A stretch of DNA of 34,794 bases from an uncultured Candidatus Saccharibacteria bacterium (GTDB taxonomy: Bacteria > Patescibacteriota > Saccharimonadia > Saccharimonadales > JALRHH01), in assembly GCA_964638875.1 (NCBI GenBank), contig CAZXBL010000005.1, positions 1 through 34,794 on the forward strand, read 5' to 3'. The first letter of the stretch is position 1. Every line of letters starts with the position of its first letter. The position numbers and the translations under genes are program-made. Positions 3,640 to 26,579 of this stretch are shown here, one piece after another. A model generated the notes under the pieces. It did no database searches. It was not told where the DNA came from and was given only the letters and a program-made list of their open reading frames with translations.

Positions 3640-4602
3640 ATGGGCACATATAAGGTTATTCAGGATATTGAAGCAGAAGACACCATTATTGGGTGGATGA
3701 CCCCGAGACAGGCAGTTTATGCTGCTATCGTTATTGTTTCTGGGTTTATCTGGTTCATGCTTGCATCGAACGGGGCATGGTGGCTTGGTCTAGTCTTATT
3801 GCCACATATGATCCTCTTTTCCGTACTAGCAGGGCCTTTTGTGCACGATCAACCATCTGAGGTGTGGTTGCTTGCCAAAATTAAGTTTTTTCTGAAACCG
3901 CGTCGGCGTATATGGGATCAGTCCGGCATCAAAGAACTGGTAACTATCACTGTGCCAAAGCGAATTGAGAAGCACTTGACCGATGGGTTAACTCAGAATG
4001 AGGTCAAGAGTCGTTTGAGCGCGCTCGCCAACACAATCGACAGTCGCGGTTGGGCAGTCAAGAATGTGAACATGAACCTCTATGCACAGCCTGCATATGC
4101 AACCACCAGTTCTGATAGGCTTGTCGATCACAGCACCATGCCTCAACCAGTGCCAGATTACGATGTGTACGCTAGTGACGATATCCTTGACGCCACTAGC
4201 AATCCAGTGGCACAGCAGGTGCACCAGATGGTTACACAGTCTACGCAGGCGCACCGTCAGCAGGTAGTAGCACGAATGCAGCAACCATCTCAGGCTACTC
4301 CCCAACAACAATCCCCCCCATGGTTCGTAGACCCTGCAGCTCAGACGAATACAACAGTTAACGACCAAACTGATGTTCAACTAAACCAGCAGATCAAACA
4401 AAGCCGCCAGCAGGCAGCCCAGCAACACAGGCCTGGTGTATCACCTTCATCCGGGCAACTTCAGCATGCACGAGCACAGCAGCCCGTTGATCGTGCAGTG
4501 GTAAGCCAGCTAGCGCGAAACAATGACCTAAATGTTTCCACAATTGCCCGTCAAGCAAATAAATCCGACGATGATAATGAGGTAGTTGTCAGCCTACGAT
4601 AA
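3640..4602 (+). CDS. PrgI-family (VirB3-like) T4SS membrane protein with a long Q-rich C-terminal extension
   Basis: The N-terminus (YKVIQDIEAEDTIIGWMTPRQAVYAAIVIVSGFIWFML..WWLGLVLLPHMILFSVLAG..EVWLLAKIKFFLKPRRRIW) has the two-helix hairpin layout typical of PrgI-family proteins. Such proteins sit directly upstream of VirB4 genes in Gram-positive T4SS loci. About 180 aa of Gln-rich low complexity follows. Confidence 0.65.
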   Translation: MGTYKVIQDIEAEDTIIGWMTPRQAVYAAIVIVSGFIWFMLASNGAWWLGLVLLPHMILFSVLAGPFVHDQPSEVWLLAKIKFFLKPRRRIWDQSGIKELVTITVPKRIEKHLTDGLTQNEVKSRLSALANTIDSRGWAVKNVNMNLYAQPAYATTSSDRLVDHSTMPQPVPDYDVYASDDILDATSNPVAQQVHQMVTQSTQAHRQQVVARMQQPSQATPQQQSPPWFVDPAAQTNTTVNDQTDVQLNQQIKQSRQQAAQQHRPGVSPSSGQLQHARAQQPVDRAVVSQLARNNDLNVSTIARQANKSDDDNEVVVSLR

Positions 4603-4731: not shown

Positions 4732-5703
4732 GTGAGACAGGTGGGACAGCAAACATCCATGGATCCAAACACACAAAATCCGCAGTACCAGCCGGCAGCT
4801 CCTGCTGTGCCTAACGCTGCACCGCAGTCTTACGCCCAAGGTAATGTGCAGCAAGCATACCAGCAAACCCCGCCGCCTCAGTACGCCCCACAACCAGGGT
4901 ATGGACAGGTGTCGGCCCCTGGTGTTGTAGTCGGTAGTGCACCCCAAACCCAACCGAACATGCCAGCACCCAAGAGCAACCCAAACAGCACACAAAATAC
5001 ATTGCAGATCGCAGAGATTAGGGACGGTATCGTTATTATGAACGACGGCTCTTTCCGCTGCGTAGTAATGGTTAAGTCAATCAATTTTGATTTAATGAGC
5101 CCTCAGGAGCGTGAGGCAGTTGAGTTCAGTTATCAGGGTTTTTTGAATTCTCTATATTTTGATATACAAATATTTTTGCGTTCGCAAAAAGTTGATATTG
5201 CCCCGTACATCAACCGTCTCGATAAAATTCGTTCCGAACACGACAACATGTTGTTAGCGTTATTGATGGAAGACTACATTGGCTACATCGCTGATATTGC
5301 ACAGCACACTAATATTATGGACAAAAAGTTTTACGTGGTAATTCCGTTTAACCCGGTACCAGACATTAAACAACTTGGCGCGCAGAGCAAGAATTTCTTT
5401 ACTGGACTTGCTGGAGTCTTTAAGCCTAAAGAGCAACATGTCACGATCAACGAGGCCGACCTAGAAAAAGCCAAGGATGAACTACGCAACCGGGTACAGG
5501 CTGTGCTCGGCGGTTTACAGCAGTGCGGCATACAAGGTCTTCCCCTCGATACACAAGAGTTGATAGAACTGTACTACGATACCTACAATCCGGACACTGC
5601 GACGCGTCAGCAGCTAAAGAACTTGGATGATTTAACCGCACCTGTCATTACCAAAGGTCAGGGCATGGCACCTCAGCCTAATCTTGATAGGGAGATCCAG
5701 TAA
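4732..5703 (+). CDS. N-terminal domain of a VirB4/PrgJ/ConE-type T4SS ATPase encoded as a separate ORF, preceded by a P/Q-rich region
   Basis: After about 90 aa of P/Q-rich sequence comes LQIAEIRDGIVIMNDGSFRCVVMVKSINFDLMSPQEREAVEFSYQGFLNSLYFDIQIFLRSQKVDIAPYINRL. This is the pattern seen at the N-terminus of Gram-positive VirB4 homologues. The stop overlaps the next ATG (TAATG at 5701-5705). The start is uncertain: GTG 4732 or ATG 4759. Confidence 0.65.
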   Translation: MRQVGQQTSMDPNTQNPQYQPAAPAVPNAAPQSYAQGNVQQAYQQTPPPQYAPQPGYGQVSAPGVVVGSAPQTQPNMPAPKSNPNSTQNTLQIAEIRDGIVIMNDGSFRCVVMVKSINFDLMSPQEREAVEFSYQGFLNSLYFDIQIFLRSQKVDIAPYINRLDKIRSEHDNMLLALLMEDYIGYIADIAQHTNIMDKKFYVVIPFNPVPDIKQLGAQSKNFFTGLAGVFKPKEQHVTINEADLEKAKDELRNRVQAVLGGLQQCGIQGLPLDTQELIELYYDTYNPDTATRQQLKNLDDLTAPVITKGQGMAPQPNLDREIQ

Positions 5704-7610
5704 TGGCACGCAAGAAACAGCAACTCGACCCAGTTGCCCTTGCTCAGGCACAACAGCTGCGTGAGCAGCAAGAAGTTCAGGCAGCGTTTCAAAAGGGTGT
5801 CACCGCGCTTCGTGATTTTATTGCACCTAGTTCATTAGAGTTTTTTGCCACCCATTTCCAACTAGGTACTCGATTTGCACGTACCTATTATGTGTACGGG
5901 TACCCTAGGCAGATCTACACTGGTTGGTTAAGCAACATGGTTAACCTCGATGAGGTTATGGACCTGTCAATGTTTATCTACCCTGTAGAAAGCCAGGTTG
6001 TCCTAGAAAACTTGCGCAAGAAAGTCACACAGCTGGAGGCTGGACTACAGATCGACTCAGAAAAAGGTCGTGTTCGTGACCCGGGCAAACAAGCGGCGAT
6101 TCTCGATGCGGAAGAGATGCGCGATAAGCTACAGGTTGGGGAGGAACGCTTTTTCCGCTTCGGCCTATATTTCACCATCTATGGTGGCACCATGGACGAG
6201 CTAGAATTTGTGGCCCATAAGGTTGAGTCAATGCTTGGGCAGCAACTGGTGTACAGTAAACCGGCTACTAGCCAACAAGAGCAAGCGCTGAACAGCACTA
6301 TCCCACAACTGACCGATCAACTACAAATACGACGAAACTTGAATACCGGGGCACTTAGTACGAGTTTCCCATTCACAAGCGCAGACCTGACCCAGGACGA
6401 CGGTATTTTATACGGTATTAACATGCATAACTCTGGTTTAGTTATCTTTGACCGGTTTAGCCTGGAGAATAGTAATTCAGTCGTCTTTGCAAAGTCTGGT
6501 GCCGGTAAGTCGTTTGCCGTAAAGCTGGAAGCGCTCCGATACATGATGATGGGTACCGAAATATTTATTGTCGACCCAGAGAACGAATATCAACGTATGT
6601 GTGAAGCAGTTGGCGGTGCCTATGTTCGGCTTAGTCTAACCTCGCCAACACGTATCAACCCGTTTGACCTACCCCAGGTTGTCGATACAGACGAAGCCGA
6701 TAACGCACTGACGAGCAACCTCCTAACTTTACACGGGCTACTACGCCTCATGATGGGCGGTGCCCAGGCGTCAATGGCAAACAGTGGGGGACCATCTTTG
6801 CCGGCGCTCGCGCCAAGTGAAGAGGCCGATCTTGATGCTGCTCTTATCGAGACGTACGCTAAGGCTGGCATCACCCAGGACCCCTTAACCCACGGGAGTA
6901 CACCACCGACCATCGGTGACCTGTACGACACCTTGTTACACATGGGGGGGACAGGTCCTCAACTAGCACAACGACTACGTAAATACACCACGGGCACATT
7001 CGCAGGTATTTTCAGCCAGCAGAGCAACATCGATATTAATAACCCTTTGGTCGTGTTTAACATTCGTGATCTGGAAGATGAGTTGCGCCCGGTGGCTATG
7101 TACATTGTTCTGAACTTTATCTGGAATAAGACTAAGAGCGATCAAAAGAAGCGTCTTCTTATTGTTGACGAGGCTTGGCAGTTGATGAAATACGAAGATT
7201 CCGCAAACTTCCTGTTTAGTCTTGCTAAGCGTGCCCGTAAATATAACCTTGGCATTACCACCATTACTCAAGACGTAGAAGACTTTATGGGCTCCCGAAT
7301 GGGTCGTGCGATTGTCAGCAATGCGTCCATGCAACTTCTGCTTAAACAATCACCAGCAGCAGTTGACGTTTTATCAGATGTTTTCAAGTTAACGAGCGAG
7401 GAGAAGAAACGCCTTAGTCAATTCCCCGTTGGGCAAGGGTTGTTCTTCGCTGGACAAAACCACGTTCATATTCAAATTGCAGCAAGCGCAACTGAGGCGA
7501 GTCTTATTACTACTAACCCAGACCAAGTCAAGGCTATCGAACAACAAGGGGAAATGTACAATACTGGTGGAACCATCGATCTGAATAACCGCCTACATCC
7601 GGGGGTGTAA
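5703..7610 (+). CDS. virB4: VirB4-like T4SS ATPase (central and C-terminal ATPase part)
   Basis: Walker A is VFAKSGAGKSFAVKLE (about nt 6490-6516). Walker B is RLLIVDEAWQLM (about nt 7155-7185). Additional matches include YYVYGYPRQIYTGWLSNMV, ITTITQDVEDF and QLLLKQS. The length and order fit the VirB4/TraC/TrbE family. Confidence 0.9.
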   Translation: MARKKQQLDPVALAQAQQLREQQEVQAAFQKGVTALRDFIAPSSLEFFATHFQLGTRFARTYYVYGYPRQIYTGWLSNMVNLDEVMDLSMFIYPVESQVVLENLRKKVTQLEAGLQIDSEKGRVRDPGKQAAILDAEEMRDKLQVGEERFFRFGLYFTIYGGTMDELEFVAHKVESMLGQQLVYSKPATSQQEQALNSTIPQLTDQLQIRRNLNTGALSTSFPFTSADLTQDDGILYGINMHNSGLVIFDRFSLENSNSVVFAKSGAGKSFAVKLEALRYMMMGTEIFIVDPENEYQRMCEAVGGAYVRLSLTSPTRINPFDLPQVVDTDEADNALTSNLLTLHGLLRLMMGGAQASMANSGGPSLPALAPSEEADLDAALIETYAKAGITQDPLTHGSTPPTIGDLYDTLLHMGGTGPQLAQRLRKYTTGTFAGIFSQQSNIDINNPLVVFNIRDLEDELRPVAMYIVLNFIWNKTKSDQKKRLLIVDEAWQLMKYEDSANFLFSLAKRARKYNLGITTITQDVEDFMGSRMGRAIVSNASMQLLLKQSPAAVDVLSDVFKLTSEEKKRLSQFPVGQGLFFAGQNHVHIQIAASATEASLITTNPDQVKAIEQQGEMYNTGGTIDLNNRLHPGV

Positions 7611-7695: not shown

Positions 7696-10600
7696 TTGGT
7701 GTCACCAGCAAAACGAAAAGACGAAACTGCACAGGAGTCCATTAAACCGGACTTTCTTGATGGCATCGACATTAGCCGCGAAGAAGCGGAGGAAATGGAG
7801 AACAATGCTTTCAATGGTGCTGCACGAGACATCGCTGACAAAGAAGCTCTTTCGAATACTGAGATAGCGAACGCCGAGACAGCTGGCGGACCAGGTGTTT
7901 CGACCGAAGGTGACAAGGCAGAGAGCGACAAAGTTGACGGCTTATATAACTCCAAAGATAAGGGAAAGAATCGCGGCCGCTTTAGTTCACTGTTAAGCAG
8001 TAGACGCAACAAGTTGATTGCTGGAGGAGTCGGTGGTGGAGGCGTAATCGGACTGGGCTTGCTTGGTTTGCTTTTCTTACCGCTTGGACCCAAGCACATG
8101 GTGACGAATCTCCAGCAGACATTTTTCGCCAACAGCGAAGAAGCTGCAGAGAAGGCAACAAATCGTTTATTATCTAGCTATATTATTTACAAAGTAATGC
8201 CTGGCCTTAGTGGCACCTGTCCGTCAACGAAAGCAAACAAAAGTTGTGCCAAGGTTAGCCAAGATGACAATATCGTTACACAATTGTATCGCTCTTGGAG
8301 GGATCAGAACCTAGAAGGCAAGATGTATGAAAAGCACGGAATTGAAATACGCCGTGAAGGTAATACCATGGTCATGCGCAGTGATCGGCTGCAAGAAGAT
8401 ATATTTAGAGGCGACTATAACGGCGGGAATGACGCAGAATTCGAACGCAAATTCTTCACAACGATGGACCGAAAAGAAGTTCGCAAGCAGATGCTTAACT
8501 CCATAGAGAACGAGACGTTTTACAAGCGTATGATGTACCGCTATAAATACGGCAGGTTAATGGAACGGAAATACGGAGTGGTCAGGTGCCTTATCGCCTG
8601 TGACTATCGCCAAGACAAGGCGGATCGTAAGGAACTCCGCAAAATGAAAATGAAAGCATGGGTTATACATCGAGTCGTTGGTCCGTTAAACGAAGGTTAC
8701 GGTATGGCGTTTGAGTGTGCTGTTGCTCAGTTCGATTGTGCTGCGGAGCATAACAATACTGTGGACGAGGACGGTACAAAGAAGACAAAGTTCGAAAACG
8801 ACCTAAGGGATAAGACAAAAGAGATTATTGGCGATGGGCGCATGACCCAAGAACGACTTGCGAAATTACAGACAGACGCCGGTGAAATCAGAGAGAACGG
8901 TATGGCAAACTTCCTACTGAAGAAGATCTTAGGTGAGGCGGGTGGTAAACTCGTTGGTAATGTAGTTCCTGGGCTTGGGTTAGCCGACGCTTTAGCCAAA
9001 CTGGTTGAAGGGGTAACTAAAGCAGGACCAGCAATAAAAACGATGCAGTACGCTATGGCAAGTGGGGCGGCAGTCAATGTCTGGACAATGTACCAGGCGA
9101 ATGCCAGTGAAGTAAATTCCGGAAATATTAATGTAGAAGAGCTGGGGTATGTTGCCGACTCTCTCGGTGATAACTTTGGTAAGGATCAAGGTGGCGGTGG
9201 GGCAGGATCAACTCCTTACTACCAAGACATCATGGGCAGCCAGGGTGTCTCCACGGCCTCCCTGTTCCCTAAGGCAGAGGCAGCTTCTCCCTTCAAGTGT
9301 GATGATGGGTCGTATATCACCACTGGTCTATGCCCGGAAATGAGCGTGTCTGCTGCCACCGGTGGTGCCGAAGCTGTGAAATCCTTCAGTGATTTTTTAA
9401 GGAAGTATCACCTCGATTCGATTGCTGCTATATGGAACTCTAGTATTGGAAAAATTTTCGATGCACTCAACAACCTTATTGGTATATTCACTGATCTTGC
9501 AGGTGATCTTGCAGGTGCACTAACACCTGATGCCATAAAAGATAAACTTGCAGATCTTGCCAAAGCAATAGGTGAATGGTTTACCGAGAAGCTCTTCGTT
9601 AGCTTCATAACAGACGATACCAGTGGTGGCAGGATGTTCGAGGCAGCCGCACTTGGTGCAAACATCGCTGGAAACGACTTTGCGCACTATGGGCTTGGGG
9701 CAGGCAAAATATCCGACCAGGCAGCAAACAGAGTTCGTTACGCCCGTGCCGTAGAGCAAAAGCAAGAGTTTATGGAGAAGTCGATGTTTGCGCGCATATT
9801 TGATACATCTAGCAGCTACTCTACCGCTTCTCAATTGGCTCTTGCTATGCCGTCAGGGGCAAGTTCAACAGCTCACTCTCTTTCATCAACACTTTTGAAT
9901 CCGGTAAGTATGATTTCATCAACACTGACTGGTTCTAGGAAGGTTAATGCCGCTCCTAAAGAAAACCTCGATTTGGCCGGAGTGACACAGTATGGATACG
10001 CAGAAAATGATCCAATCTTCAGTGTAACCGACTATGAAAAGTGGTGGACAGATAGCAATTGTGACGATGAGTCAGTGGTAACTGCTTGGGGTGAATCTGC
10101 AACGATGAGTAGTAAGAACGGCTCATTCGAGAATGACCAACCAAATCGCTGTAAGCTCATTGAAGCGATGTCTACTAGTAACTGTGGCTACACGAATGAC
10201 GAGTGTCTTACTCCAGAGGAGCTCGGTGATCAAGTAAATTCATATGGTGAAAACACTAATGGTGGTGTGGCACTACGTGCAGCATCATTTAACATTTTGC
10301 ACTCTCCTGATGGTAATGTAGAGGCTCGTTTGCGGAAATCTATCGACACGCTGCTTAACCCGCCCGGTGGTGGTGAACAGGTTGACGTTGTTGGGCTTCA
10401 GGAGGTCCGAAAGGACCAACTAGCTATGCTAAAGGCAAGTAACTTTGGCCAACAGTATAATATGTTCCCCAACACGCCAAACAACCGAGAGTATGAGCCG
10501 AACATAGTTGCTTGGCGAAAAGATAAATACACCGTCATAAAGGAAGCAACGATGAATGCTAGGTACTTCTTTGGAAATCCGGAGCAAATGCCAGTTGTAA

Positions 10601-11547
10601 AACTAAAAGAAAATTCAACAGATCGTGTACTCTATTTTGCCAGCATCCACAATCCCCGGTCTGGTGGAGATCCGTTTAGGGGTAATAATGAAGGTGTTCG
10701 TGACGATAACGCGCGTTTGTTCCAAGAATACTTTGCAAACCTTAAACAACAGGAGCCTGACACGCCGATGATCCTTGTAGGTGATTTTAACGCAGGCTAC
10801 CAGGCGGCCGATAAGCTTGAAGATGTGCCATATGGACGAAGATCATTTTGCATCCTAACTAATGGCATTTTCTGGGATGCGTGGCATGCATCGAAGAAAA
10901 TTGATGGCAAGTGTCCTAAACGAAGTACGGTTAATTTCATCGACCATATCTTTATTGATCGAGACACGCAGGTATCCAAGTTCTTTACTGCCCCACGGGG
11001 CATAGATAAAAATGGGTCAGACCACCCGACAATCTTTGCGGACCTAACTGGCCCTGATCTTACGGGAAGTGATGGTTGGTCATGGCCACTGAAATCAAGC
11101 GTCACCAGTGGCCCGTGCTATGGTGTGGAAGTTAAGGATCTCGGTAAGCATGCTGGCATGGATATGAATACATCGAAGGGTGACAACCCCGTGCTAGCAA
11201 TACACTCTGGTAAAGTCGTAAGGGTAGGCGCAGATCCGTACGCAGGAAACTACATCACAATTCTTGCTGACGCCCCGTTCAACAACAAACGTGTCTACTA
11301 TTCATACGAGCACCTAAAGTCAGGCACTATAAAATTCGCCGAAGGCGACCGTGTATTGGGCGGTGAGAAGGTGGCTATTGCGGGAACATCGGGCAGATTC
11401 TTTGGATCGTCATTAGGTCATTTGCATATCGTCACCGCTACAACAAATAGCCTGGGTGGGTATGGCAGCCTCGGAACTACATTTAACCCGATGGATGTAT
11501 TGAAAAACGCAGGGCCTGCTCCGGAAGGTTACAAGTGCACGCAGTAA
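7696..11547 (+). CDS. 1283-aa bitopic T4SS-associated multi-domain protein: cytoplasmic charged N-terminus, one TM, about 700-aa unknown ectodomain, EEP (endonuclease/exonuclease/phosphatase) domain, C-terminal M23 peptidase
   Basis: The TM segment is GGVGGGGVIGLGLLGLLFLPLG. EEP motifs are RAASFNILHS, VVGLQEV, ILVGDFNAGY and NGSDHPTIFADL (about nt 10270-11045). M23 motifs are HAGMDM (HxxxD) and GHLHIV (HxH) (about nt 11090-11470). TATAAT lies at 7673-7678 and AAGAGGA lies upstream of the TTG 7696 / GTG 7699 start. Confidence 0.85.
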   Translation: MVSPAKRKDETAQESIKPDFLDGIDISREEAEEMENNAFNGAARDIADKEALSNTEIANAETAGGPGVSTEGDKAESDKVDGLYNSKDKGKNRGRFSSLLSSRRNKLIAGGVGGGGVIGLGLLGLLFLPLGPKHMVTNLQQTFFANSEEAAEKATNRLLSSYIIYKVMPGLSGTCPSTKANKSCAKVSQDDNIVTQLYRSWRDQNLEGKMYEKHGIEIRREGNTMVMRSDRLQEDIFRGDYNGGNDAEFERKFFTTMDRKEVRKQMLNSIENETFYKRMMYRYKYGRLMERKYGVVRCLIACDYRQDKADRKELRKMKMKAWVIHRVVGPLNEGYGMAFECAVAQFDCAAEHNNTVDEDGTKKTKFENDLRDKTKEIIGDGRMTQERLAKLQTDAGEIRENGMANFLLKKILGEAGGKLVGNVVPGLGLADALAKLVEGVTKAGPAIKTMQYAMASGAAVNVWTMYQANASEVNSGNINVEELGYVADSLGDNFGKDQGGGGAGSTPYYQDIMGSQGVSTASLFPKAEAASPFKCDDGSYITTGLCPEMSVSAATGGAEAVKSFSDFLRKYHLDSIAAIWNSSIGKIFDALNNLIGIFTDLAGDLAGALTPDAIKDKLADLAKAIGEWFTEKLFVSFITDDTSGGRMFEAAALGANIAGNDFAHYGLGAGKISDQAANRVRYARAVEQKQEFMEKSMFARIFDTSSSYSTASQLALAMPSGASSTAHSLSSTLLNPVSMISSTLTGSRKVNAAPKENLDLAGVTQYGYAENDPIFSVTDYEKWWTDSNCDDESVVTAWGESATMSSKNGSFENDQPNRCKLIEAMSTSNCGYTNDECLTPEELGDQVNSYGENTNGGVALRAASFNILHSPDGNVEARLRKSIDTLLNPPGGGEQVDVVGLQEVRKDQLAMLKASNFGQQYNMFPNTPNNREYEPNIVAWRKDKYTVIKEATMNARYFFGNPEQMPVVKLKENSTDRVLYFASIHNPRSGGDPFRGNNEGVRDDNARLFQEYFANLKQQEPDTPMILVGDFNAGYQAADKLEDVPYGRRSFCILTNGIFWDAWHASKKIDGKCPKRSTVNFIDHIFIDRDTQVSKFFTAPRGIDKNGSDHPTIFADLTGPDLTGSDGWSWPLKSSVTSGPCYGVEVKDLGKHAGMDMNTSKGDNPVLAIHSGKVVRVGADPYAGNYITILADAPFNNKRVYYSYEHLKSGTIKFAEGDRVLGGEKVAIAGTSGRFFGSSLGHLHIVTATTNSLGGYGSLGTTFNPMDVLKNAGPAPEGYKCTQ

Positions 11548-13739
11548 TGAGTTTGTTACAAAATTATTATAAACGCTTTGTAAAAACCATGCGGCTGGCC
11601 CTGATAGGGGCCTTGGTTATCAGCGTCTCTATACCCCAAGCAGTATACGCATTACCGCAATCAGAAAAAGAACAAATCGATGAAAACTCTGTCGACTACG
11701 TTAAGGGAGGGGTATGTGCGCCCGCAGACTCGTCTGCCAGCGCTACCGGCGGAACAGTTGGCAGCTACACAAATCCCGTGTACGACGGAGTGGGTCAAGG
11801 CCCTACGGTCATATTGGGCGATGATGGCATATATCATGTCTATCTCACTAGCGATGACAAAAACCCCTTTAAGCATTTAAAGTCAAAGAACCTCGTGGAC
11901 TGGGACCTGGTGTCGCGGGACACAATATCAAACCTCAACGATATTCCAAAAGATCTACGCAATGTAATGTGGGCGCCCGATGTTGCCAAGACTGGCGATC
12001 ACTATACTATGGTGTTTACTGGCGGCTCTAAGGGGGGCAACGAAGGCGTGAGGTATATTGGCTACGCCACTAGCAATGATGCCGCCGGGCCTTTTAAGTA
12101 TCGTGGGCGTCTCACAGAACCTCAAGATCCAGGCGGCCGCGTACTGGACCCGCACTTATTTCTCGAAGGCGATAAAATATATGTAACGCATGGGTCATCT
12201 CCGATCGCGATATCAGAGATAAATATGCAGACAGACGGAAAGATGTCGATTGTCGGATCGAGTAAAGAGTTGGTGCTCCGTGGCACCTGGGCAGGACATC
12301 CATCAACCATCGAACAATCTTGGCTGCATAAGATTGGTGGGTGGTACTACATGTTTTATTCGGCTGGGCACTATAGGGATCGTGATGGCCACCAAGAATA
12401 TTCAGTTCGCGTTGCAAGATCTAAAAATCTAATGGGACCCTACAATCCCGAGGATCACTCAAGGATTGTGCTTCAAAGCAAAGATCCATTCGATGCTCCT
12501 GGGGCATCCACAATTATCCAAGACGGCTCTGGCACTTACTGGATGATATATAACGCCTTTAAGGGAGGTGAACGGCGGTTGATGCTAGATAAACTGAACT
12601 TTGAGAATGGTTGGCCAGTTGCAAATAATGGATATCCTTCGTCGACAAAACAAGACGGTGGTGGCGACTCGGGTGATGCCCCAGCCAGGGCAAGCATCGA
12701 CGCCTGCTGCGCCACCTCAGGTGCCGACATTTCGGATCCCACAGCAAACACCACAGGTGCTCAAGGATCAACTGCTAAAGAGGTTTTTGTATTTCTGATT
12801 GGCAAAGGTTTGACCGCGAAGCAAGCCGCTGGAATAGTAGGTAACCTTATGTCGGAGTCCGGGGTAGGGAAAACAAAGTTTGATCTTGACCCTAAGGTCA
12901 CAAACGGAATAGGTGCCTATGGTATCGCCCAGTGGTTATACGAGCGTAAGACGGCCTTACAGAAAAAAGCTAATTATGACACACTGCAAGTACAAATGGA
13001 CTTCATGTGGCACGAACTAACCACGGGTTATAAAGCCAGCACCTTAACACCGATTAAAGCCAGCACGGAATATATAGGTCCGAACGGTTCAGTACGTATA
13101 TTCCTTGAGAACTACGAGATTCCCTGTACAGCCGGATCCGACTGTGACAGCTTTTATAACACCAGAAAGGGCTATGCAGACCAAGCATACGCCGCTTTCA
13201 AAGATCTTGGACCAGATGATGTAGGTAGTACATTAGGTGGTGGTTGCAGTGGAAGTAGTGATGCGTATATTGACGCAAGTGGCTTCGCCTGGCCCCTCGT
13301 AATGCCAAAAAATAAAATATCAAATGGCTGTCCTTGGCCTACCCGTACTTCCCCCCCTTATTGTCACCACGATGGCACTCCCGCGTTTGACCTATTCGCA
13401 CCCGTTGGGACAAAAGCGGTTGCAATAACTGACGGTACTATCGACAGCATAAATCCTTATCGTAGCACCGGTTGTCAATCTATTCAGTTCAAGAGTAATG
13501 ACGGCTGGTACTACTGGTACGGACACACTAGAACGGATAGCGAGACTCCGGCTATTGGTGCTCCGTTAAAAGCTGGTGACTATATATCCAAGGTTGGAGA
13601 AAGTGTGTGTGCCTTAAATACTTCTCCCCACCTCCACATTGACAGAGGATTCCCTAAGGGGACGCGAGGAGGGGACGACCCTAGCCGTGATCCTGATTTC
13701 CTCAAGATTATGAACGAACTGTATAAGAACATGGAGTAG
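11547..13739 (+). CDS. Secreted triple hydrolase: GH43 beta-propeller + phage-tail-type lysozyme domain + M23-like metallopeptidase
   Basis: The signal peptide is MRLALIGALVISVSIPQAVYA. GH43 blocks are NPVYDG..GPTVILGDDGIYHVY, WAPDV, VLDPHLFLEGDKIYV, EQSWLHKIGGWYYMFYSAG and RRLMLDKLNFENGWPV. The lysozyme block is AAGIVGNLMSESG...YGIAQW. The M23-like block is PAFDLFAPVGTKAVAITDGTI...SPHLHID. The preferred start is ATG 11547, overlapping the upstream TAA. GTG 11535 and ATG 11589 are alternatives. Confidence 0.85.
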   Translation: MSLLQNYYKRFVKTMRLALIGALVISVSIPQAVYALPQSEKEQIDENSVDYVKGGVCAPADSSASATGGTVGSYTNPVYDGVGQGPTVILGDDGIYHVYLTSDDKNPFKHLKSKNLVDWDLVSRDTISNLNDIPKDLRNVMWAPDVAKTGDHYTMVFTGGSKGGNEGVRYIGYATSNDAAGPFKYRGRLTEPQDPGGRVLDPHLFLEGDKIYVTHGSSPIAISEINMQTDGKMSIVGSSKELVLRGTWAGHPSTIEQSWLHKIGGWYYMFYSAGHYRDRDGHQEYSVRVARSKNLMGPYNPEDHSRIVLQSKDPFDAPGASTIIQDGSGTYWMIYNAFKGGERRLMLDKLNFENGWPVANNGYPSSTKQDGGGDSGDAPARASIDACCATSGADISDPTANTTGAQGSTAKEVFVFLIGKGLTAKQAAGIVGNLMSESGVGKTKFDLDPKVTNGIGAYGIAQWLYERKTALQKKANYDTLQVQMDFMWHELTTGYKASTLTPIKASTEYIGPNGSVRIFLENYEIPCTAGSDCDSFYNTRKGYADQAYAAFKDLGPDDVGSTLGGGCSGSSDAYIDASGFAWPLVMPKNKISNGCPWPTRTSPPYCHHDGTPAFDLFAPVGTKAVAITDGTIDSINPYRSTGCQSIQFKSNDGWYYWYGHTRTDSETPAIGAPLKAGDYISKVGESVCALNTSPHLHIDRGFPKGTRGGDDPSRDPDFLKIMNELYKNME

Positions 13740-14176: not shown

Positions 14177-15525
14177 TGAACTCAGGGCCTTATACAAAAG
14201 TAATAAACTATTTCTTGCTGTTGGCTGCGTTTATAATGTGCATCTCGCTGGTAATGTACGGATATGCAGTCACTAAAACACCAAGACTAAACGTATCCAA
14301 CACACTTAGTAATAACATGTTTTTTATCGACAAGTTATCTGATGCCGAAATTCGGTACTATAACGGCAACACTTTTGTGGCCATGAATCCTACCACTAGA
14401 AAAACCGGGCTGTTATCGCAATACCGTATGCTCCCAGATGTAAATCAGGTTTTTTGGTTAACCAACGGGGTAGTGTTCGCTACGACCGAAGTAAGCACGT
14501 TTAGCGAACTTAATCCTATTCTTCAGAATGAGCTTGTTAATAACCCTGGTAGCCGAGCAGGTGACACCCCCACATATTGGTATCTTTCATTCCAGGATCA
14601 GCTCATTAGACCTATTAGCAACGATGTGGTTCAGCCAGCAAGCTTCGGTGTATTAGCAAGTGACGGATCATTCGTTTTTAAAGATGGCCCTGAAGGCTCA
14701 TACTCAATACTCAAAGAAAACGGTGAGGTGATCCTTGGTGCTGTTAACGTAGAGGGTGACTCAAAACCTCTCTTTGCTACCGACAAAAAGTTAATTTACA
14801 CATCTCAGGTAGAGGAGCGCTCAAGTAATCGAGAATCAGAAAGTGTGGTTTCGCTAAAGTCCGCGGAATTTTACAAAGAGGATAGTAAGACAATAGTTGA
14901 CGACTTGTTCGAAGACAAAACTAGCACGGTATTTGGGGAAATCACTTCCATAGACGAAACACGTTACCTAATCAACAGAGCTGTAAAAAGGGATAAACCG
15001 GGTGGTGGTGATTTGTACATTTACGATACAAAATCAAAGAAGAGTAATCGAATAATTAAGGACTTTGAAGGTGTTGTCAGTAAGAACTCTTCGGGTGTAG
15101 TCGCTGTAAAACAGGGTCGTAAATTTAATGTTGTGCACCGTGTCGAAAGCGACGGCGTAAAAGATCGTGCCCGGTTTGAGCGAGAAGAGCACCAGACGGT
15201 AGCAAGCACTACCCACTTTGATGGGGGTTATATTCTTTCAAGTGGGAATGGTAAATCTTTCTTTATACATAAAGATGGAGTTAAGACAGACTTGCTTGGA
15301 AAGGACGCTTACGGCGGAGCTTTGGAGAAAGAAATCCAGAGGCTACCTAATAACAACAGACTACTCCGAGACATTGAGTCACCTTATGACACCAGCTACA
15401 CCTTACAATTCAATGGTAAATCTAGAGATGCACTCGGCACATTGCAAGCAGCGATTAGTAGCAAGGGCTACGACCCCAATCAATTTATTATCACACTTAC
15501 CCCTGGGAGAAGTGTTGAGTACTAG
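14176..15525 (+). CDS. N-terminally anchored 449-aa extracytoplasmic protein of unknown function (beta-rich by composition)
   Basis: The TM helix is NYFLLLAAFIMCISLVMYGYAV. The ORF is long and uninterrupted and is translationally coupled to the upstream ORF. No motif was recognised. Confidence 0.65.
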   Translation: MNSGPYTKVINYFLLLAAFIMCISLVMYGYAVTKTPRLNVSNTLSNNMFFIDKLSDAEIRYYNGNTFVAMNPTTRKTGLLSQYRMLPDVNQVFWLTNGVVFATTEVSTFSELNPILQNELVNNPGSRAGDTPTYWYLSFQDQLIRPISNDVVQPASFGVLASDGSFVFKDGPEGSYSILKENGEVILGAVNVEGDSKPLFATDKKLIYTSQVEERSSNRESESVVSLKSAEFYKEDSKTIVDDLFEDKTSTVFGEITSIDETRYLINRAVKRDKPGGGDLYIYDTKSKKSNRIIKDFEGVVSKNSSGVVAVKQGRKFNVVHRVESDGVKDRARFEREEHQTVASTTHFDGGYILSSGNGKSFFIHKDGVKTDLLGKDAYGGALEKEIQRLPNNNRLLRDIESPYDTSYTLQFNGKSRDALGTLQAAISSKGYDPNQFIITLTPGRSVEY

Positions 15526-16580
15526 TTGGTAAGAATGACGTGGGTTTTGTCGAGGAAGTATTCTACGACTACGTCGGCATCTGTGGTGGTTATGAAGGTC
15601 TGGTAGTCTTGTAGAACTTCTGTGAGTGCCTTGCGGCGGGCACCATCAAGCTCGCTGAAGACGTCGTCTAGTAATAGTATGGGCTTCTTGCCGCGAGCTT
15701 CCTCAACAATGCGCATTTCGACCGTTTTGAGGGCTAGTAACATTGTCCTGGTTTCCCCGCGTGATGCTGCCTCGTGCAATAATTTACCTTTCAAAATAAT
15801 CCGCATGTCATCGCGGTGGGGGCCATAGGTTGTGAAACCACGCTCAAAATCCTGTTTGGTACTTTGTTCTAATTTATGCAGCATATCAGAACTGTATTGG
15901 TCTGTTTGGCATCCGCTAACGTAAGCCACGGTGACTTCCGCGTCTGCACGCGAGATATCCTGGTATAACTGCTGGACTTGCCCACTAATCTTTGCAACTA
16001 GCTTCATTCGGTGCTCAGCGATTTGACCACCCAGTTGGCTTAAGCGAATGTTCCATGCGAACAACTGTGAAGCACCAATTTCTGCGCCTAGTTTTAGTAG
16101 TCTGTTCCTTTGCGCCAGGGCACGGCGGTACTGAACTCGCAGTGTTGCGAAACCCGGTGTGAATTGCTCCAGAATCCCGTCCAGGTAATCACGACGGAGG
16201 TCAGGGGAACTAGCAAGTAGTTGCAGATGATTGGGCTCAAACAACACCACCGGTATTTGCTTCTGTAGGCTAAGGCGTTTCAGTGGCTGGTCACTAATAA
16301 CGTACTCTTTTTTTATGCTTCCGTTTGGTTCACTTATCAGTTTAACTGTGCGGGTGCCCTCTGGTGTACCGACATCAATTCGCGCCCATGGTTGCTCAAA
16401 CTGCACCAGCTCAGCGTCTTTAACCCTATATGAACTACCGAGGCAATTCACCAAAATGGATTCAAGCAAGTTCGTCTTACCACTGGCGTTAGGGCCAACG
16501 ATAATATTCACACCAGGATCTATCTCGAAGGAGCTGTCCTGGTACGAACGGAAATTTTGTAACCTAATATCAGTAATCAT
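15522..16580 (-). CDS. recF: DNA replication and repair protein RecF
   Basis: MITDIRLQNFRSY. Walker A is GPNASGKTNLLE. Walker B is ILLLDDVFSELD. It is located downstream of dnaN. Confidence 0.93.
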   Translation of the reverse strand: MITDIRLQNFRSYQDSSFEIDPGVNIIVGPNASGKTNLLESILVNCLGSSYRVKDAELVQFEQPWARIDVGTPEGTRTVKLISEPNGSIKKEYVISDQPLKRLSLQKQIPVVLFEPNHLQLLASSPDLRRDYLDGILEQFTPGFATLRVQYRRALAQRNRLLKLGAEIGASQLFAWNIRLSQLGGQIAEHRMKLVAKISGQVQQLYQDISRADAEVTVAYVSGCQTDQYSSDMLHKLEQSTKQDFERGFTTYGPHRDDMRIILKGKLLHEAASRGETRTMLLALKTVEMRIVEEARGKKPILLLDDVFSELDGARRKALTEVLQDYQTFITTTDADVVVEYFLDKTHVILTN

Positions 16581-16593
16581 TACCTATAGTGTA

Positions 16594-17685
16594 CTAGGAT
16601 TTCAGCGGCATAATAACGTGTAGATAGTCGTTACTGGCAGGGTCGGCCAAAACACACGGTTCCAGCTTGCCGTTAAAGGAAACTTGCACGTCTTCACCAC
16701 CAAGGGCATGTAACGCATCCAGAATATAACGTGAATTAAGCGTGATCACACCTTCGTTGGCGATCTGTGCTGCCGCACTAGCGGTGTTCTCACCAATTTG
16801 TGAGGCTATTGAACGAATACTAACCTGTTGTGCTTCGGCGTCGAGGTTCAGTGTCACACTGCCGGCACTTTCGCGGGCGAACAAACTCGATACCTTGGTA
16901 ATATTTGTGAGTTCAGACTTCTTGAGCGTCGCGTCGCTAGCAAAAGAGCGCGGGATGAGCTTACGGTAGTCTGGGTACTTACCTTCGATAAGTCGTGCCA
17001 CCAACTCTACGTCACCAACTGTAAACAGGACTTGTTGATCATCATGTGTCACAACGACGTCTTCTTCAAAGTCGCCAAGGATACGGAGCAAGTCAGCAAG
17101 CGCACTCGCTGGGATTAGCAGATCAACATCCTTATCAATACTAATGAGAGATTTTTCTGCTAGACGATAACTGTCAGTTGCGACGATATATAGTTTTCCT
17201 TCGTGTGTGTGCCAGTAGACACCGGTCAGAACCGGGCGGGCTTCGTCGCTTGATGCTGCAACTACTACTTGCTGGAGTGATTGTTTCAGTAGCTTTCCGG
17301 GGATCTTCCAGCTTGTGCCGTTTGTGATGGCAGGCATGACAGGGTAGTCTTCTGCGGAAATACCATTAATAGTTGAATTATATTTGTCGGCTTTAATGTG
17401 CAGCTTGTACTCGTCTAATTTCAATTCAATAACTCCACCCGGAAGACTACTCACAAAATCCTGCATAAGCCGCGCAGGGACGGTTATAGCGCCTTCTGCA
17501 CTTACTTTAGAACCAATGTAGTGGGTGATTGCAATATCAAGGTTGGTTGCTGCAATACTGAGCCTGCCATCTACTGTCTTTAAGAGCACGTTTGAAAGAA
17601 TTGGTAAGGTCCCTCTACTATTAGCAACACGTGCTACGCTGCTGAGTGCTTTGCTGAGATTTTCTTGTGTGACTTGGAGCTTCAT
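16594..17685 (-). CDS. dnaN: DNA polymerase III beta sliding clamp
   Basis: MKLQVTQENLSKALSSVARVANSRGTLPILSNVLLK is a typical clamp N-terminus. The length from ATG 17685 is 363 aa. The 74 codons upstream in the ORF track run through DnaA-box-containing intergenic DNA and are not clamp-like. Confidence 0.93.
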   Translation of the reverse strand: MKLQVTQENLSKALSSVARVANSRGTLPILSNVLLKTVDGRLSIAATNLDIAITHYIGSKVSAEGAITVPARLMQDFVSSLPGGVIELKLDEYKLHIKADKYNSTINGISAEDYPVMPAITNGTSWKIPGKLLKQSLQQVVVAASSDEARPVLTGVYWHTHEGKLYIVATDSYRLAEKSLISIDKDVDLLIPASALADLLRILGDFEEDVVVTHDDQQVLFTVGDVELVARLIEGKYPDYRKLIPRSFASDATLKKSELTNITKVSSLFARESAGSVTLNLDAEAQQVSIRSIASQIGENTASAAAQIANEGVITLNSRYILDALHALGGEDVQVSFNGKLEPCVLADPASNDYLHVIMPLKS

Positions 17686-17960
17686 TCTGTGTTCCTGTAT
17701 ACCTATATATTTAATTAGTAGTAGTGTTAGTAAGCACTGTGGATTGTGTGTACAAGCGGTTGATAACAGAGGTAAAATTACCCACAGGGGCTGTGTAGTT
17801 CCGCACACAAAATGTGTACAACCCACGTGAAAGTCGGGGAGTTTTCCATACGTATTTTGCAGATAAAACTTTGCTGTGCAGAACCCCGATACTTTGCCCA
17901 CAGGCATCAGTGGCTTTTCCTACGGCTTCTACACAGGTCTTCCACATGGTCACAAAATCA
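17686..17960. promoter_or_regulatory. dnaA-dnaN intergenic origin module: DnaA-box-like 9-mers plus an AT-rich stretch
   Basis: TTACCCACA lies at 17778-17786 and TTTTCCATA at 17842-17850. TTGCCCACA lies at 17894-17902 and TCTTCCACA at 17938-17946. TGTGGATTG (reverse CAATCCACA) lies at 17738-17746. An AT-rich run lies at 17701-17734 (acctatatatttaattagtagtagtgttagtaag). Confidence 0.55.
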
Positions 17961-19349
17961 CTAAGCATACAAACGCTCCTTAATTTCATTTACGGCTGCC
18001 TTAATATCGGCATCGTAACTGACTTCTTTTTCGATCTTCTCGACAGAATGTATCGCGGTGGTGTGGTCTTTACGCCCAAGCTCGCGGGCAATTTTAGGGA
18101 AGCTGAGGTGTAGCTCGCTGCGCAGCATGTACATTGCGACTTGACGGGGGACGACAATATCTTTGTCACGCTTTGGCCCCATGATCTCTTCCATAGGGAT
18201 TTGGAAATGTTTCGCACATCGTTCGATAATTTGTTTCGCACTAATATGTTTTGGCCGGGTCTTAGTAGCACCAAGTAGGGTGGTTGCTAGGTTGATGTCT
18301 GGGCTCAAGCCACGCATTTCACAAAATGCGAGCAGCTGGTTCAGCGCACCTTCAAGCTCACGAATGTTCGACTGCACCAAGTTAGCAAGGTATTCCACGA
18401 CCGGTGGGTCAAGACTGACGCCGTGTACTTGGGCCTTGGTTTGGATAATGACACAACGCGTTTCAAAATCAGGGATCTGCATATCAATACTCATGCCCCA
18501 AGTAAATCGACTGCGCAGACGTTCCTCTAGTGTCGGGATGTCCTTTGGTGGTTTGTCACTACTAATGATGATCTGCTTGTTTGCCTGGTGTAGTGCGTTA
18601 AATGTGTGGAAGAACTCCTCCTGCGTCTTTTCCTTGCCAGCGATGAACTGGATATCATCAATGATCAGCACATCGGCGTTGCGGTAATAACTAGCAAAGT
18701 CGGTGTTTTTCTTGAATTTAATTGCGTCCAAGAATTCCTGCACAAACTGTTCAATTGAAATATATACGATGTTTGCGTCAGGGTTGCCAGCAATAACAGC
18801 ATTGCCAACCGCCTGGATCAGGTGAGTTTTACCCAAACCAACACCACCGTACAGAAATAGCGGGTTATATTTAGTACCCGGGTTCGCTGCGATTGCCTGA
18901 CATGCTGCATAAGCCAACTCATTACCAGAACCGACAATAAAGTTATCGAATGTGTATTTCTCGTTCAGGCCCAATCTGTATGAGTGGGTGAGTGAGCTGG
19001 TCTGGCTACGGCTTTGCTGAGAGTTCGCTGCGTTGTTCGCGATCCGCTCAGTCGTTGCTGCATTAAGAATCAACGTTTCTTCATCAGCCTTTTTAGGGAT
19101 ATTAATAGAGGAGTAGATCTTATATTCAATGCGTTCTGGGATTACGCCGTTCTTGGTGATCAGATCAGTGATCATCTGATTGTATTTCTGTTCCAACTGC
19201 TGCTTTATAAAGACATTTGGTACACCGATTGTAATGACATTGTCCTTGTGGCGGAGCAGACGGGTGTTCTTGAACCAAGTCACATAGGAGCCGCGTGACA
19301 CTGTCAGTTCAATTTCGCCTAAGACCGTTTGCCACAGGTTATCCTGCAT
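17961..19349 (-). CDS. dnaA: Chromosomal replication initiator DnaA
   Basis: Walker A is LYGGVGLGKTHL. Walker B is VLIIDDIQF. The sensor region is SSDKPPKDI. The C-terminal DNA-binding signature is LGRKDHTTAIHS. Confidence 0.95.
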   Translation of the reverse strand: MQDNLWQTVLGEIELTVSRGSYVTWFKNTRLLRHKDNVITIGVPNVFIKQQLEQKYNQMITDLITKNGVIPERIEYKIYSSINIPKKADEETLILNAATTERIANNAANSQQSRSQTSSLTHSYRLGLNEKYTFDNFIVGSGNELAYAACQAIAANPGTKYNPLFLYGGVGLGKTHLIQAVGNAVIAGNPDANIVYISIEQFVQEFLDAIKFKKNTDFASYYRNADVLIIDDIQFIAGKEKTQEEFFHTFNALHQANKQIIISSDKPPKDIPTLEERLRSRFTWGMSIDMQIPDFETRCVIIQTKAQVHGVSLDPPVVEYLANLVQSNIRELEGALNQLLAFCEMRGLSPDINLATTLLGATKTRPKHISAKQIIERCAKHFQIPMEEIMGPKRDKDIVVPRQVAMYMLRSELHLSFPKIARELGRKDHTTAIHSVEKIEKEVSYDADIKAAVNEIKERLYA

Positions 19350-21966: not shown

Positions 21967-22554
21967 ATGAAGGGTGGGACAGAAACCAGTGCTGTAATTG
22001 ACGGCATTATGAGATTTATTGTTGGTGGCGGAACGATCACCACAATTTTAGCGGCACCTGGTATGGCCGAGGTTCTCGATAAGCCAACACTAAATTACTT
22101 TAACAAGCTTGATAAACGTGCTCAGCGGCGAGAACTAAAGCGTCTTGTCTACTATATGAAGCAAAAAGGGTTAGTTTATCCTACGAGTGAAGAATACATG
22201 CATGGTATCGTCGTGACAAAGAAAGGTCTAGAACGGCTAAAGACAATAGACTTTGAAACATTGCAGATTCCTACACCAACAAAATGGGACAACAAATGGC
22301 GGCTCGTGCTGTTTGATATTCCAGAGCACCGTCGTGCTGGACGACGCGTACTAATATCAAAGTTAAAAGCAATCGGTTTCTTGCAACTTCAAAGAAGTGT
22401 GTGGGTACATCCTTTACCTTGCAGAGCAGAGATAGAGGTTATCACGCACCACTATAATATAGCGCGATACGTTTCCTATATCGACGCGACAGGTATCGAC
22501 AACCACGACGTACTAGTCAAAAAATTTAAGACTATTCTCACTCAGCCGAAGTAA
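21967..22554 (+). CDS. PaaX-like transcriptional regulator (winged helix + C-terminal Cas2/PaaX-type domain)
   Basis: The wHTH-like block is LKRLVYYMKQKGLVYPTSEEYMHGIVVTKKGLERL. The C-terminal block is KWDNKWRLVLFDIPEHRRAGRRVLISKLKAIGFLQLQRSVWVHP, characteristic of PaaX-like proteins. Confidence 0.55.
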   Translation: MKGGTETSAVIDGIMRFIVGGGTITTILAAPGMAEVLDKPTLNYFNKLDKRAQRRELKRLVYYMKQKGLVYPTSEEYMHGIVVTKKGLERLKTIDFETLQIPTPTKWDNKWRLVLFDIPEHRRAGRRVLISKLKAIGFLQLQRSVWVHPLPCRAEIEVITHHYNIARYVSYIDATGIDNHDVLVKKFKTILTQPK

Positions 22555-22697: not shown

Positions 22698-23159
22698 ATG
22701 AGTACGCCGGTTAAATTTTTTGGAGTCATTCTTGGTGTGCCAGCGTTGATCATCGGGCTGTTACTTGTTAACGCATTCATATATCCTTTTAGCTCCAAGA
22801 ACCCTAATTTTTCCGACGTAGAGCAGGCATTCTCTAAACTCCAGTTTCCTTCAGACTGGCAAGAAATCAGCAGCAGCGAAAACCGAGGCATTGCCGGTCG
22901 CGGCTGCGACCCCTTCAACTCCTCCGGCTGCTTTAGTAAACGAAAAGTTTTTAGTGTTCCAATAAATGTGGGTTCGACACAGGTGTCGCAGGTTCTTAAG
23001 CAGTCTGGATGTGAGAGCATCTCCATCGAGGAGTATAAATATAATGACACAGACAAACCTTCTTATAACTTTAGGTGCACAATAGGTAGTAACGTTTTCT
23101 ATAGTGGTAACCTAAGTGGTACAGAGAATCGTGTCAGCATCAGCAGCAGCACCTACTAG
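22698..23159 (+). CDS. Small N-terminally anchored, Cys-containing extracytoplasmic protein of unknown function
   Basis: A GGGGGTAGG SD-like run lies upstream of the ATG. The TM helix is FFGVILGVPALIIGLLLVNAFIY. The ectodomain has four Cys residues. The 3' end overlaps the start of the cutinase-domain gene. Confidence 0.55.
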   Translation: MSTPVKFFGVILGVPALIIGLLLVNAFIYPFSSKNPNFSDVEQAFSKLQFPSDWQEISSSENRGIAGRGCDPFNSSGCFSKRKVFSVPINVGSTQVSQVLKQSGCESISIEEYKYNDTDKPSYNFRCTIGSNVFYSGNLSGTENRVSISSSTY

Positions 23160-25937: not shown

Positions 25938-26579
25938 ATGAAGAAGATTAACCAGGGTGGTTTCTTATCTTTTTTTGAAATAATGGTAATCCTTGTCGTT
26001 GCCACGTTGTGTTATGCGGGTTTCAAAGTGTACCAAAATGACAAGGCAGAGAAAGCTACATCAAGCAGCGAAACAACTAACTACGAAGGACAAACAAAAA
26101 CCTATACCGACACCGCCAAAAAGTTTACCTTTGAATACCCAATCACCTGGGAGGCATCCAATCCTGAACCAGGCGGGAGTGACTCTCTTGGTGACAAGCC
26201 AATAGCTATCACCGACTGGTCGGTCGTATCCCGAGACGTGCGCATAAAACCCTTGGAAGGCCAAAAGGACAACTACATCCGGATTACGCCGAATATAACA
26301 AAAGACTATGTAGCCGAGCAAAGAGCCCGCAAGGACCGGTTCCATACCCTCCTAGACGGCAAGATCAACAATTATGACACGCTTTACGACAAACTAGAGT
26401 TTAAGGGAGATGCCGAAAGTTACGTCGACCACACATACTACGTTCTACACGGTGAAACATACGTGATGTTCACATTCCGGGAAAACCACCACCATGACAT
26501 GAGCGGCACAAACTACGACGACAAACAAAACCTCCCAGGTTTCCAAGCCATAGTTAACTCAATAAAATTCACCAACTAA
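25938..26579 (+). CDS. Type IV pilin-like protein, paralogue 1 (atypical spacing of the conserved Glu)
   Basis: The sequence is MKKINQGG/FLSFFEIMVILVVATLCYAGFKVYQ. It has a short basic leader, Gly-Phe, Glu at +6 and a hydrophobic helix. The C-terminal globular part carries the FTFEYPITW motif. Confidence 0.65.
   Translation: MKKINQGGFLSFFEIMVILVVATLCYAGFKVYQNDKAEKATSSSETTNYEGQTKTYTDTAKKFTFEYPITWEASNPEPGGSDSLGDKPIAITDWSVVSRDVRIKPLEGQKDNYIRITPNITKDYVAEQRARKDRFHTLLDGKINNYDTLYDKLEFKGDAESYVDHTYYVLHGETYVMFTFRENHHHDMSGTNYDDKQNLPGFQAIVNSIKFTN

Follow-up and report, generated by a model that had tools for sequence, protein, structure and literature searches.

A Saccharibacterial type IV secretion locus encodes a putative wall-breaching enzyme whose GH43 propeller carries glycine in place of the general-base aspartate

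Cell wall hydrolases that combine a glycosidase with a peptidase, such as PrgK (pCF10), TcpG (pCW3), CwlT (ICEBs1) and TraG (pIP501), are encoded in the type IV secretion system (T4SS) operons of monoderm bacteria and are needed for the channel to pass through the wall. Their modules are of the SLT, muramidase, CHAP or NlpC/P60 types and, to our knowledge, include no GH43 propeller. Here we describe a gene on a stretch of DNA from an uncultured Candidatus Saccharibacteria bacterium (GenBank assembly GCA_964638875.1, contig CAZXBL010000005.1, positions 1 to 34,794; the whole stretch of 34,794 nucleotides is called the window). Its product of 730 amino acids (aa) combines a GH43 domain with a lysozyme-like and an M23 domain and has no detectable full-length homology to these four proteins. 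Closer by locus type are the peptidase and lysozyme homologues of Southlakia epibionticum ML1, which likewise belong to a Gram-positive-like T4SS by dnaA, occupy the slot after virB4 and pair a lysozyme with a peptidase; this comparison is one of locus type and published description. The T4SS of S. epibionticum (SEML1_0006-0019) is essential for its epibiotic growth on Actinomyces (PMC10633639), as are the homologues of a peptidase and a lysozyme encoded directly behind virB4 (PMC12102498). The latter paper cites PrgK, GH43 is mentioned in neither of the two, and a full-text literature search for Saccharibacteria and GH43 returned unrelated microbiome surveys only. Most of the Saccharibacterial homologues that we found differ from the studied protein in being without an N-terminal GH43 propeller.

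We consider it rather likely that the gene encodes a wall-breaching enzyme associated with the T4SS, with a GH43 module that binds glycan or is strongly attenuated. The main key to its function is its position between T4SS genes and the chromosomal origin, a context absent from an earlier interpretation of the same DNA from its letters alone (the sequence-only reading). The genes that define this context, with the source of each assignment, are:

3640-4602 (+), PrgI-like gene (Pfam, NCBIfam)
4732-5703 (+), TraC/TrsD-like gene, 323 aa (Pfam, NCBIfam)
5703-7610 (+), VirB4 ATPase, 635-aa P-loop protein (Pfam, NCBIfam)
7696..11547 (+), 1283-aa membrane protein with EEP nuclease/phosphatase and M23 domains (Pfam)
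11547..13739 (+), the studied gene, 730 aa, signal peptide, GH43, lysozyme and M23 (open reading frame list, Pfam)
15522..19349 (-), recF, dnaN and dnaA, chromosomal origin region (Pfam)

Downstream of the studied gene follow recF, dnaN, dnaA, rnpA and yidC. The order PrgI, TraC-like, VirB4, EEP plus M23 protein, slot of the studied gene, dnaN and dnaA is conserved in the loci surrounding the homologues P0004 (locus L001), P0050 (L084, on a 937-kb contig that also carries T4SS pilins and TrbL) and P0089 (L085), with the origin genes recF, dnaN and dnaA syntenic in each. Placement after the VirB4 and EEP/M23 genes is conserved in at least four divergent genomes. The gene lies within a T4SS operon near virB4, as is expected of a T4SS wall hydrolase, and its conserved synteny marks it as part of a type IV secretion locus of Saccharibacteria. 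Its start codon, ATG at 11547, runs into the stop codon of the 1283-aa open reading frame (ORF) before it as TAATG, an overlap also kept in L001 that suggests translational coupling of the two genes; a second possible start is GTG at 11535. When one genome per GTDB species was scanned, the closest loci were found in metagenome-assembled genomes (MAGs) of Candidatus Saccharibacteria/Patescibacteria. Most matches in Saccharibacteria MAGs span only aa 408-727, that is the lysozyme and M23 part, at 42-45% identity; ORFs in loci L008 and L010 combine GH43 and lysozyme with a CHAP-like domain and have the canonical DP motif at the GH43 base.

Two of the upstream genes have features of their own. The TraC/TrsD-like ORF (4732-5703) has weak matches to TrsD/TraD and to VirB4 N-terminal regions and abuts the VirB4 ORF (5703-7610); VirB4 function appears to be split over two ORFs (4732-7610), and the same arrangement is found in L001 and L084. 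The 1283-aa protein joins a membrane region at its N-terminus to an endonuclease/exonuclease/phosphatase (EEP) domain at aa 863-1110 and an M23 domain at aa 1151-1245, and a surface or secreted nuclease within an essential T4SS locus is intriguing.

Within the studied gene the following features were assigned:

11547..11651 (+), predicted Sec signal peptide, aa 1-35, cleavage after VYA (hydropathy and charge pattern, analogous N-termini)
11766..12617 (+), GH43 five-bladed beta-propeller, aa 74-357 (Pfam PF04616, AlphaFold2 model, Foldseek)
11799..11801 (+), codon GGC, Gly85 at the position of the GH43 general-base Asp (phmmer and MAFFT alignments)
12147..12149 (+), Asp201, the pKa-modulating Asp (VLDPHLF), retained (aligned GH43 domains)
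12312..12314 (+), Glu256, the general acid (IEQSW), retained (aligned GH43 domains)
12642..12770 (+), Gly/Asp/Ser-rich linker with the Cys-Cys motif DACCAT at aa 385-390 (alignment A1, low model confidence)
12771..13199 (+), Phage_lysozyme2 domain, aa 409-551, with Glu437 in NLMSES (Pfam, alignment A3, Foldseek)
13362..13646 (+), M23/LAS metallopeptidase domain, aa 606-700, with CHHDGTPAFD, WYGH and HLH (Pfam, phmmer against PDB, Foldseek)

The secreted three-domain architecture proposed in the sequence-only reading was borne out, as all three domains score above the curated Pfam thresholds behind a predicted signal peptide. The latter has a basic n-region (K9, R10, K13, R16), a 13-residue hydrophobic core (L17-I29) and a cleavage site at VYA(35)|LP, and equivalent N-termini are present in the homologues P0003 and P0004 and in the L008 and L010 ORFs; Sec-type export of the protein is accordingly a prediction from the N-terminal pattern. 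Glyco_hydro_43 (PF04616) matches aa 74-357 over profile positions 1-288 of 288 (E = 6.9e-41, 140.9 bits against a cut-off of 32.2). The five-bladed propeller was modelled with confidence by AlphaFold2 (mean predicted local distance difference test (pLDDT) 86, predicted template modelling (TM) score 0.88), and in Foldseek the model reached TM scores of 0.75-0.79 to 4kcb and 4qqs. Like the canonical GH43 enzymes HoAraf43 (4QQS), exo-1,5-alpha-L-arabinanase (4KCB) and XynB3 (2EXH), with TM scores of 0.73-0.79 overall, it has the five-bladed fold, an end-to-end Pfam match and conserved pKa Asp, acid Glu, WAP Trp and blade-V Arg. It differs from them in that the base Asp is Gly, two His are changed, identity is only 20-25% and the domain is fused to peptidoglycan hydrolases. 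Profile and fold hence place the domain in GH43, and the general-base Asp of the family is missing.

The C-terminal model begins with the linker, at low pLDDT. Its Cys-Cys pair (12699-12716, aa 385-390) is conserved in homologues as ACC, TCC or GCC. Most homologues also have the motif (F/Y)xxNDILFYxxxxxC right behind the signal peptide, of which the studied protein has a degenerate version (ENSVDYVKGGVC, aa 36-58). These elements might form a disulfide or act as a signal for secretion or processing.

The C-terminal half resembles a known pair of wall hydrolases. Phage_lysozyme2 (PF18013) matches aa 409-551 (E = 3.4e-23, 82.8 bits against a cut-off of 28.2), the domain is modelled as all-helical with pLDDT of 83-96 over its length, and Glu437 (E43 in alignment A3), in the xxES motif of the N-terminal helix, is invariant across 16 aligned homologues, so that profile, helical fold and conserved Glu of the family are all present. 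By analogy with the Phage_lysozyme2 family, we take Glu437 to be the catalytic Glu. Peptidase_M23 matches aa 613-698 (E = 4.9e-9, 36.7 bits against 28.7), phmmer matches in PDB are 9gy1 and 5kqb, and Foldseek matches are lysostaphin and LytM (TM scores normalised to the target of 0.62-0.66). In alignments to 9gy1 and 5kqb, H695-L-H697 falls on HLH and H660 (in WYGH) on YGH, both canonical, and D615 falls on the Zn-ligand Asp. The first motif is C606-H-H-D-G-T-P-A-F-D615 (13362-13391), in which the nearest His, H607 or H608, gives Hx7D or Hx6D instead of HxxxD. The atypical first motif and canonical HLH motif noted in the sequence-only reading are therefore confirmed by the alignment. Across LAS enzymes the first motif ranges more widely, as H-x(3-6)-D, and Hx6-7D is near that range. 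The variant CHHDGTxAxD is conserved in P0001-P0007, and P0008 has a canonical HxxxD; the seven Saccharibacterial homologues with the variant motif also keep extra Cys residues (GCQS, VC). To judge from these sequences, the variant-motif group may be a distinct M23/LAS subfamily.

The lysozyme family is named for phage tail proteins, and the best Foldseek match of the C-terminal model (pLDDT 78) is phi29 gp13 (3CSQ), aligned over both domains (339 aligned columns, E = 9e-9). Like the studied protein, gp13 has a PF18013 lysozyme followed by a C-terminal M23 (LytM-type) domain. Identity is only 18-19% and global TM about 0.3, the latter because the relative orientation of the domains differs or is poorly predicted; gp13 is moreover a virion tail-knob protein without GH43, and the first M23 motif of the studied protein is Hx6-7D. 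Matches to phage tail proteins were also obtained by tblastn, none of which spans at least 80% of the C-terminal part. A phage or prophage tail lysin is nevertheless extremely improbable here: no phage genes lie nearby, the neighbours being T4SS and chromosomal origin genes, and conjugative plasmids of Gram-positive bacteria (Lactobacillales) carry annotated members of this lysozyme family. The label 'phage tail' in the sequence-only reading is a domain-family name only.

GH43 enzymes are inverting hydrolases that require an Asp base (PMC6887791). In pairwise phmmer alignments to PDB entries 21ap and 6ms3, G85 of the studied protein (in GQGP) sits on the Asp of 'DP'; only an ungapped pairwise alignment to 4qqs was offset by one residue at this position. 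A phmmer-anchored alignment of 189 GH43 domain rows, comprising the best matches among 1.84 billion exhaustively searched cluster representatives together with word-index matches, has D in 162 rows of the base column, A in five, G in two and P in one, and three of the A/P rows are one-residue register slips that retain 'ADP'. Among the 170 relatives aligned at this column, Gly is found in the studied protein and P0004 only. In the MAFFT alignments A1 and A2, the Asp conserved in at least 90% of sequences likewise falls on residue 85. Three independent alignments thus agree with the substitution at codon 11799-11801 that had been read by eye. The retained residues named in that reading hold up equally well, with D in 178 of 180 rows at D201 and E in 176 of 179 at E256, and the sugar-contacting residues W142, D201, E256 and R343 are all retained in the studied protein. 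The Asp in VYDGVG (D80), which would have spoken against a substitution had it been the true base, is Ser in P0004 and is no conserved substitute. No acidic or polar residue was gained specifically in the clade of the two Gly-bearing proteins.

Other positions around the active site changed earlier. Gln is unusual at Q84, beside the base position, and at Q257, beside the acid, and both are also present in P0050, which keeps the Asp. Two conserved His residues are replaced within 12495-12560 (aa 317-338): PGH has become PGA (A320; His in 144 of 183) and YH has become YN (N336; His in 173 of 182). Both losses are common to the studied protein, P0004, P0002 and P0050 (PGH to PGA/S/T in the trio). 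Since the Asp-keeping P0050 has the His losses and Q84/Q257 too, these changes predate the Asp loss, and the active-site surroundings of the subclade appear from the alignment to have been remodelled before the base was lost.

The codon GGC is one transition away from the Asp codon GAC, and a sequencing error or a decaying pseudo-domain were considered as explanations of the missing base. Both are about as improbable as a phage origin. P0004 comes from a different metagenome and an independent assembly, its GH43 domain is 52-56% identical to the studied one and free of frameshifts, and GVGQGPTV is identical in the two proteins although seven of its eight codons differ synonymously, including that of the Gly (GGC in one, GGA in the other). 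The studied GH43 domain is 40.0% similar to 16 outgroup domains, compared with 39.2% for its Asp-keeping sister P0050; the rate is not accelerated, and because its outgroup similarity matches that of P0050, constraint on the domain is not relaxed. These codon and relative-rate comparisons were used instead of the ratio of nonsynonymous to synonymous rates because synonymous sites are saturated at about 52-56% aa identity. On this comparative evidence, we regard the Asp-to-Gly change as real and kept under purifying selection, and as neither decay nor error. A neighbour-joining tree has the topology (P0050,(studied protein,P0004)), with bootstrap support of 100 (trio) and 71 (Gly pair), which implies a single Asp-to-Gly event. 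On another branch of the tree, P0089 (4175-6472 in L085), with the order lysozyme2, GH43, M23, has Ala at the base; judged by its placement, this is a second, independent loss.

Searches for further members of the Gly clade returned few sequences. The exhaustive search at the level of 50% clusters has P0004 as the sole other Gly representative, and members inside such clusters could be hidden. Word-index protein searches gave no further Gly-clade sequences, from an index that is not exhaustive (P0001, P0003 and P0004 were not re-listed), and a scan of metagenome contigs with a GH43 alignment of the studied protein and P0004 gave one distant relative and no new member of the clade. P0002 (67-76% identical) may be a third Gly-bearing protein; its contig is cut inside the gene, so that the N-terminus with the base position is missing.

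The GH43 clade behaves as a recurring module. In the exhaustive search, the best matches were large proteins (1383-1571 aa) whose GH43 domain lies near the C-terminus. Each of the 41 nearest cluster representatives contains GH43; Phage_lysozyme2 accompanies it in 11, EEP in 8, M23 in 7, CHAP in 4, a C39-like domain in 3, SLT in 1 and GDSL in 1. In about half of the nearest relatives, the GH43 domain is fused with a peptidoglycan hydrolase or nuclease module. Most proteins with this module have an intact Asp/Asp/Glu triad. P0050 (8001-12677 in L084) consists of a membrane region, EEP, GH43 and M23, with the Asp-bearing GH43 between EEP and M23; it is a homologue of the 1283-aa protein encoded upstream of the studied gene (57% identity in the EEP part), and in L084 the place of the studied gene is taken by an Amidase_3 protein. 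By this comparison, the GH43 clade is a mobile module that shifts between two adjacent T4SS-linked genes. Outside Patescibacteria, the closest GH43 domains are those of L011-L013, from MAGs of Thermoleophilia and Gaiellales (Actinomycetota), whose identity of 31-34% is only slightly ahead of Paenibacillus and Bacteroidota; with this small margin, they may hint at the origin of the module.

These distributions also bear on a nutritional role. Arabinan and xylan are characteristic GH43 substrates, the weak NCBIfam matches of the domain are to arabinanases, and relatives outside the candidate phyla radiation are single-domain GH43 proteins from Bacteroidota and Paenibacillus; the protein might thus be a plant-polysaccharide enzyme or a general secreted bacteriolysin whose T4SS neighbourhood is coincidental. 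We consider this very unlikely, given the conserved slot after the VirB4 and EEP/M23 genes with TAATG coupling in at least four divergent genomes, the peptidoglycan hydrolase or nuclease modules on about half of the nearest GH43 relatives and the shift of the module between two adjacent T4SS-linked genes. The NCBIfam arabinanase scores are, in addition, far below their cut-offs and assign no substrate, which leaves the arabinose-containing ligand suggested in the sequence-only reading unsupported.

For the wall-breaching enzyme that we favour, the following course of action is proposed. The protein would be exported through its Sec signal peptide, the lysozyme-like domain would cut glycan strands and the M23 endopeptidase cross-links, and together they would open peptidoglycan locally so that the T4SS can span the wall, be it that of the epibiont, that of an actinobacterial host, or both. 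In most relatives, the GH43 domain has an intact triad, and its substrate is presumably a wall-associated glycopolymer other than peptidoglycan. In the lineage of the studied protein and P0004, the base Asp would have been replaced by Gly once and the change then kept by purifying selection; most likely the propeller still binds glycan and hydrolyses it very poorly or not at all, and would direct the two peptidoglycan hydrolases to the wall or hold them there. Action on a cell wall, most plausibly that of an actinobacterial host, had been proposed before, and its general idea is supported by the present comparisons. According to their PDB titles, engineered base mutants of GH43 enzymes (2exi, D15G; 3d60, D27A; 6a8h, D27A) stay folded, and a crystal of a D27A mutant contained arabinotriose; the studied domain is a natural mimic of the first of these, XynB3 D15G (2EXI). 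This mutant is reported to have lost roughly 1000-fold in kcat.

The competing possibility is that the GH43 domain is still a working glycosidase with a non-canonical base, such as a tautomerised Gln or Asn, a Grotthuss water chain or an exogenous anion, which would make the protein a true triple hydrolase. Precedent exists in the GH43_24 exo-beta-1,3-galactanases (Pc1,3Gal43A, BT3683, Ct1,3Gal43A), in which, as here, the base Asp is naturally missing; they are active, and a tautomerised Gln (Gln263 or its equivalent) is proposed to serve as base (PMC7939473). The unusual Gln at Q84 and Q257, the retained D201 and E256 and the strong purifying selection around Gly85 would all suit such an enzyme. 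Q84 and Q257 are, however, not compensatory, as the Asp-keeping P0050 has both, and no new polar or acidic residue specific to the clade accompanies the change to Gly. In GH43_24 the loss is family-wide with a conserved Gln as base, whereas the studied clade has a recent loss and no recruited residue; the domain is also not GH43_24-like, its nearest structures being of arabinanase and arabinofuranosidase types with a canonical triad. The Asp-to-Ala change in P0089 further suggests that catalysis is dispensable in this setting. We therefore regard a functioning glycosidase as doubtful. Of the two hypotheses in the sequence-only reading, a lectin or a mechanistic variant, which was the right pair, the evidence leans to the first in the form of a binding or attenuated module, owing to purifying selection on the Gly motif, the lack of a compensating acid and the independent loss to Ala; catalysis keeps some probability. 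Several points weigh against our preference. Loss of the base Asp alone is no proof of inactivity because GH43_24 enzymes are active without it, the retained D201 and E256 are as compatible with catalysis as with binding, the number of full-length sequences with the Gly is only two, and the sequence does not separate action on the epibiont's own wall from action on that of a host.

The remainder of the window holds further genes of interest near the origin region. At 21967-22554 (+) is a protein with a PaaX-central/Cas2-like domain, and 25938-27329 (+) encodes two adjacent PsbP-like proteins (weak PF18933 matches). The 926-aa product of 23116-25896 (+) contains a serine esterase domain of the cutinase type (PF01083, E = 2.4e-21, aa 139-284) and, towards the C-terminus, a long unannotated stretch; such a protein is unusual for a reduced epibiont genome and, by its family, could act on host envelope lipids or esters. 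A mycolic-acid host with arabinogalactan, as the cutinase gene and GH43 together might indicate, was considered and dropped, because D-arabinan is not known to be a GH43 substrate. Surface-polysaccharide genes at 29175-33827, encoding a GT4 glycosyltransferase, a membrane protein resembling Wzy/O-antigen ligase and a GDP-mannose 4,6-dehydratase, are accompanied by flanking Ig/fn3-domain proteins (30337-31209, 33863-34714). By these genes the epibiont produces a surface glycan of its own, an alternative candidate ligand of the GH43 domain.

A T4SS-associated multi-domain wall hydrolase is a known type of protein; new here are an undescribed GH43 module and the selected loss of its base. The module recurs, moves between two adjacent genes, is exchanged for CHAP, amidase, SGNH and C39 modules, and twice its base was lost, which points to a non-peptidoglycan wall glycopolymer as the recognised target. 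As a tentative extension, T4SS wall modules could be interchangeable, with GH43 as the determinant of host-glycan specificity and the Asp-to-Gly form as a lectin-like 'substrate trap' by which the secretion machine and its peptidoglycan hydrolases would dock to a particular wall polysaccharide of actinobacteria. If true, this would be a natural switch from enzyme to adhesin that sets host range; the alternative would be a second, independently evolved base-less GH43 mechanism. Patescibacteria, including Saccharibacteria, live on host bacteria, and the T4SS is among the few systems genetically shown to be essential there, so that GH43-bearing T4SS proteins are testable candidates for determinants of host range. 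The Gly variant is probably a non-cleaving binding propeller and as such could serve as a probe for labelling the glycan or pulling it down. To carbohydrate enzymology it would offer either the conversion of an enzyme to a lectin under selection or a second way in which a GH43 domain works without its base.

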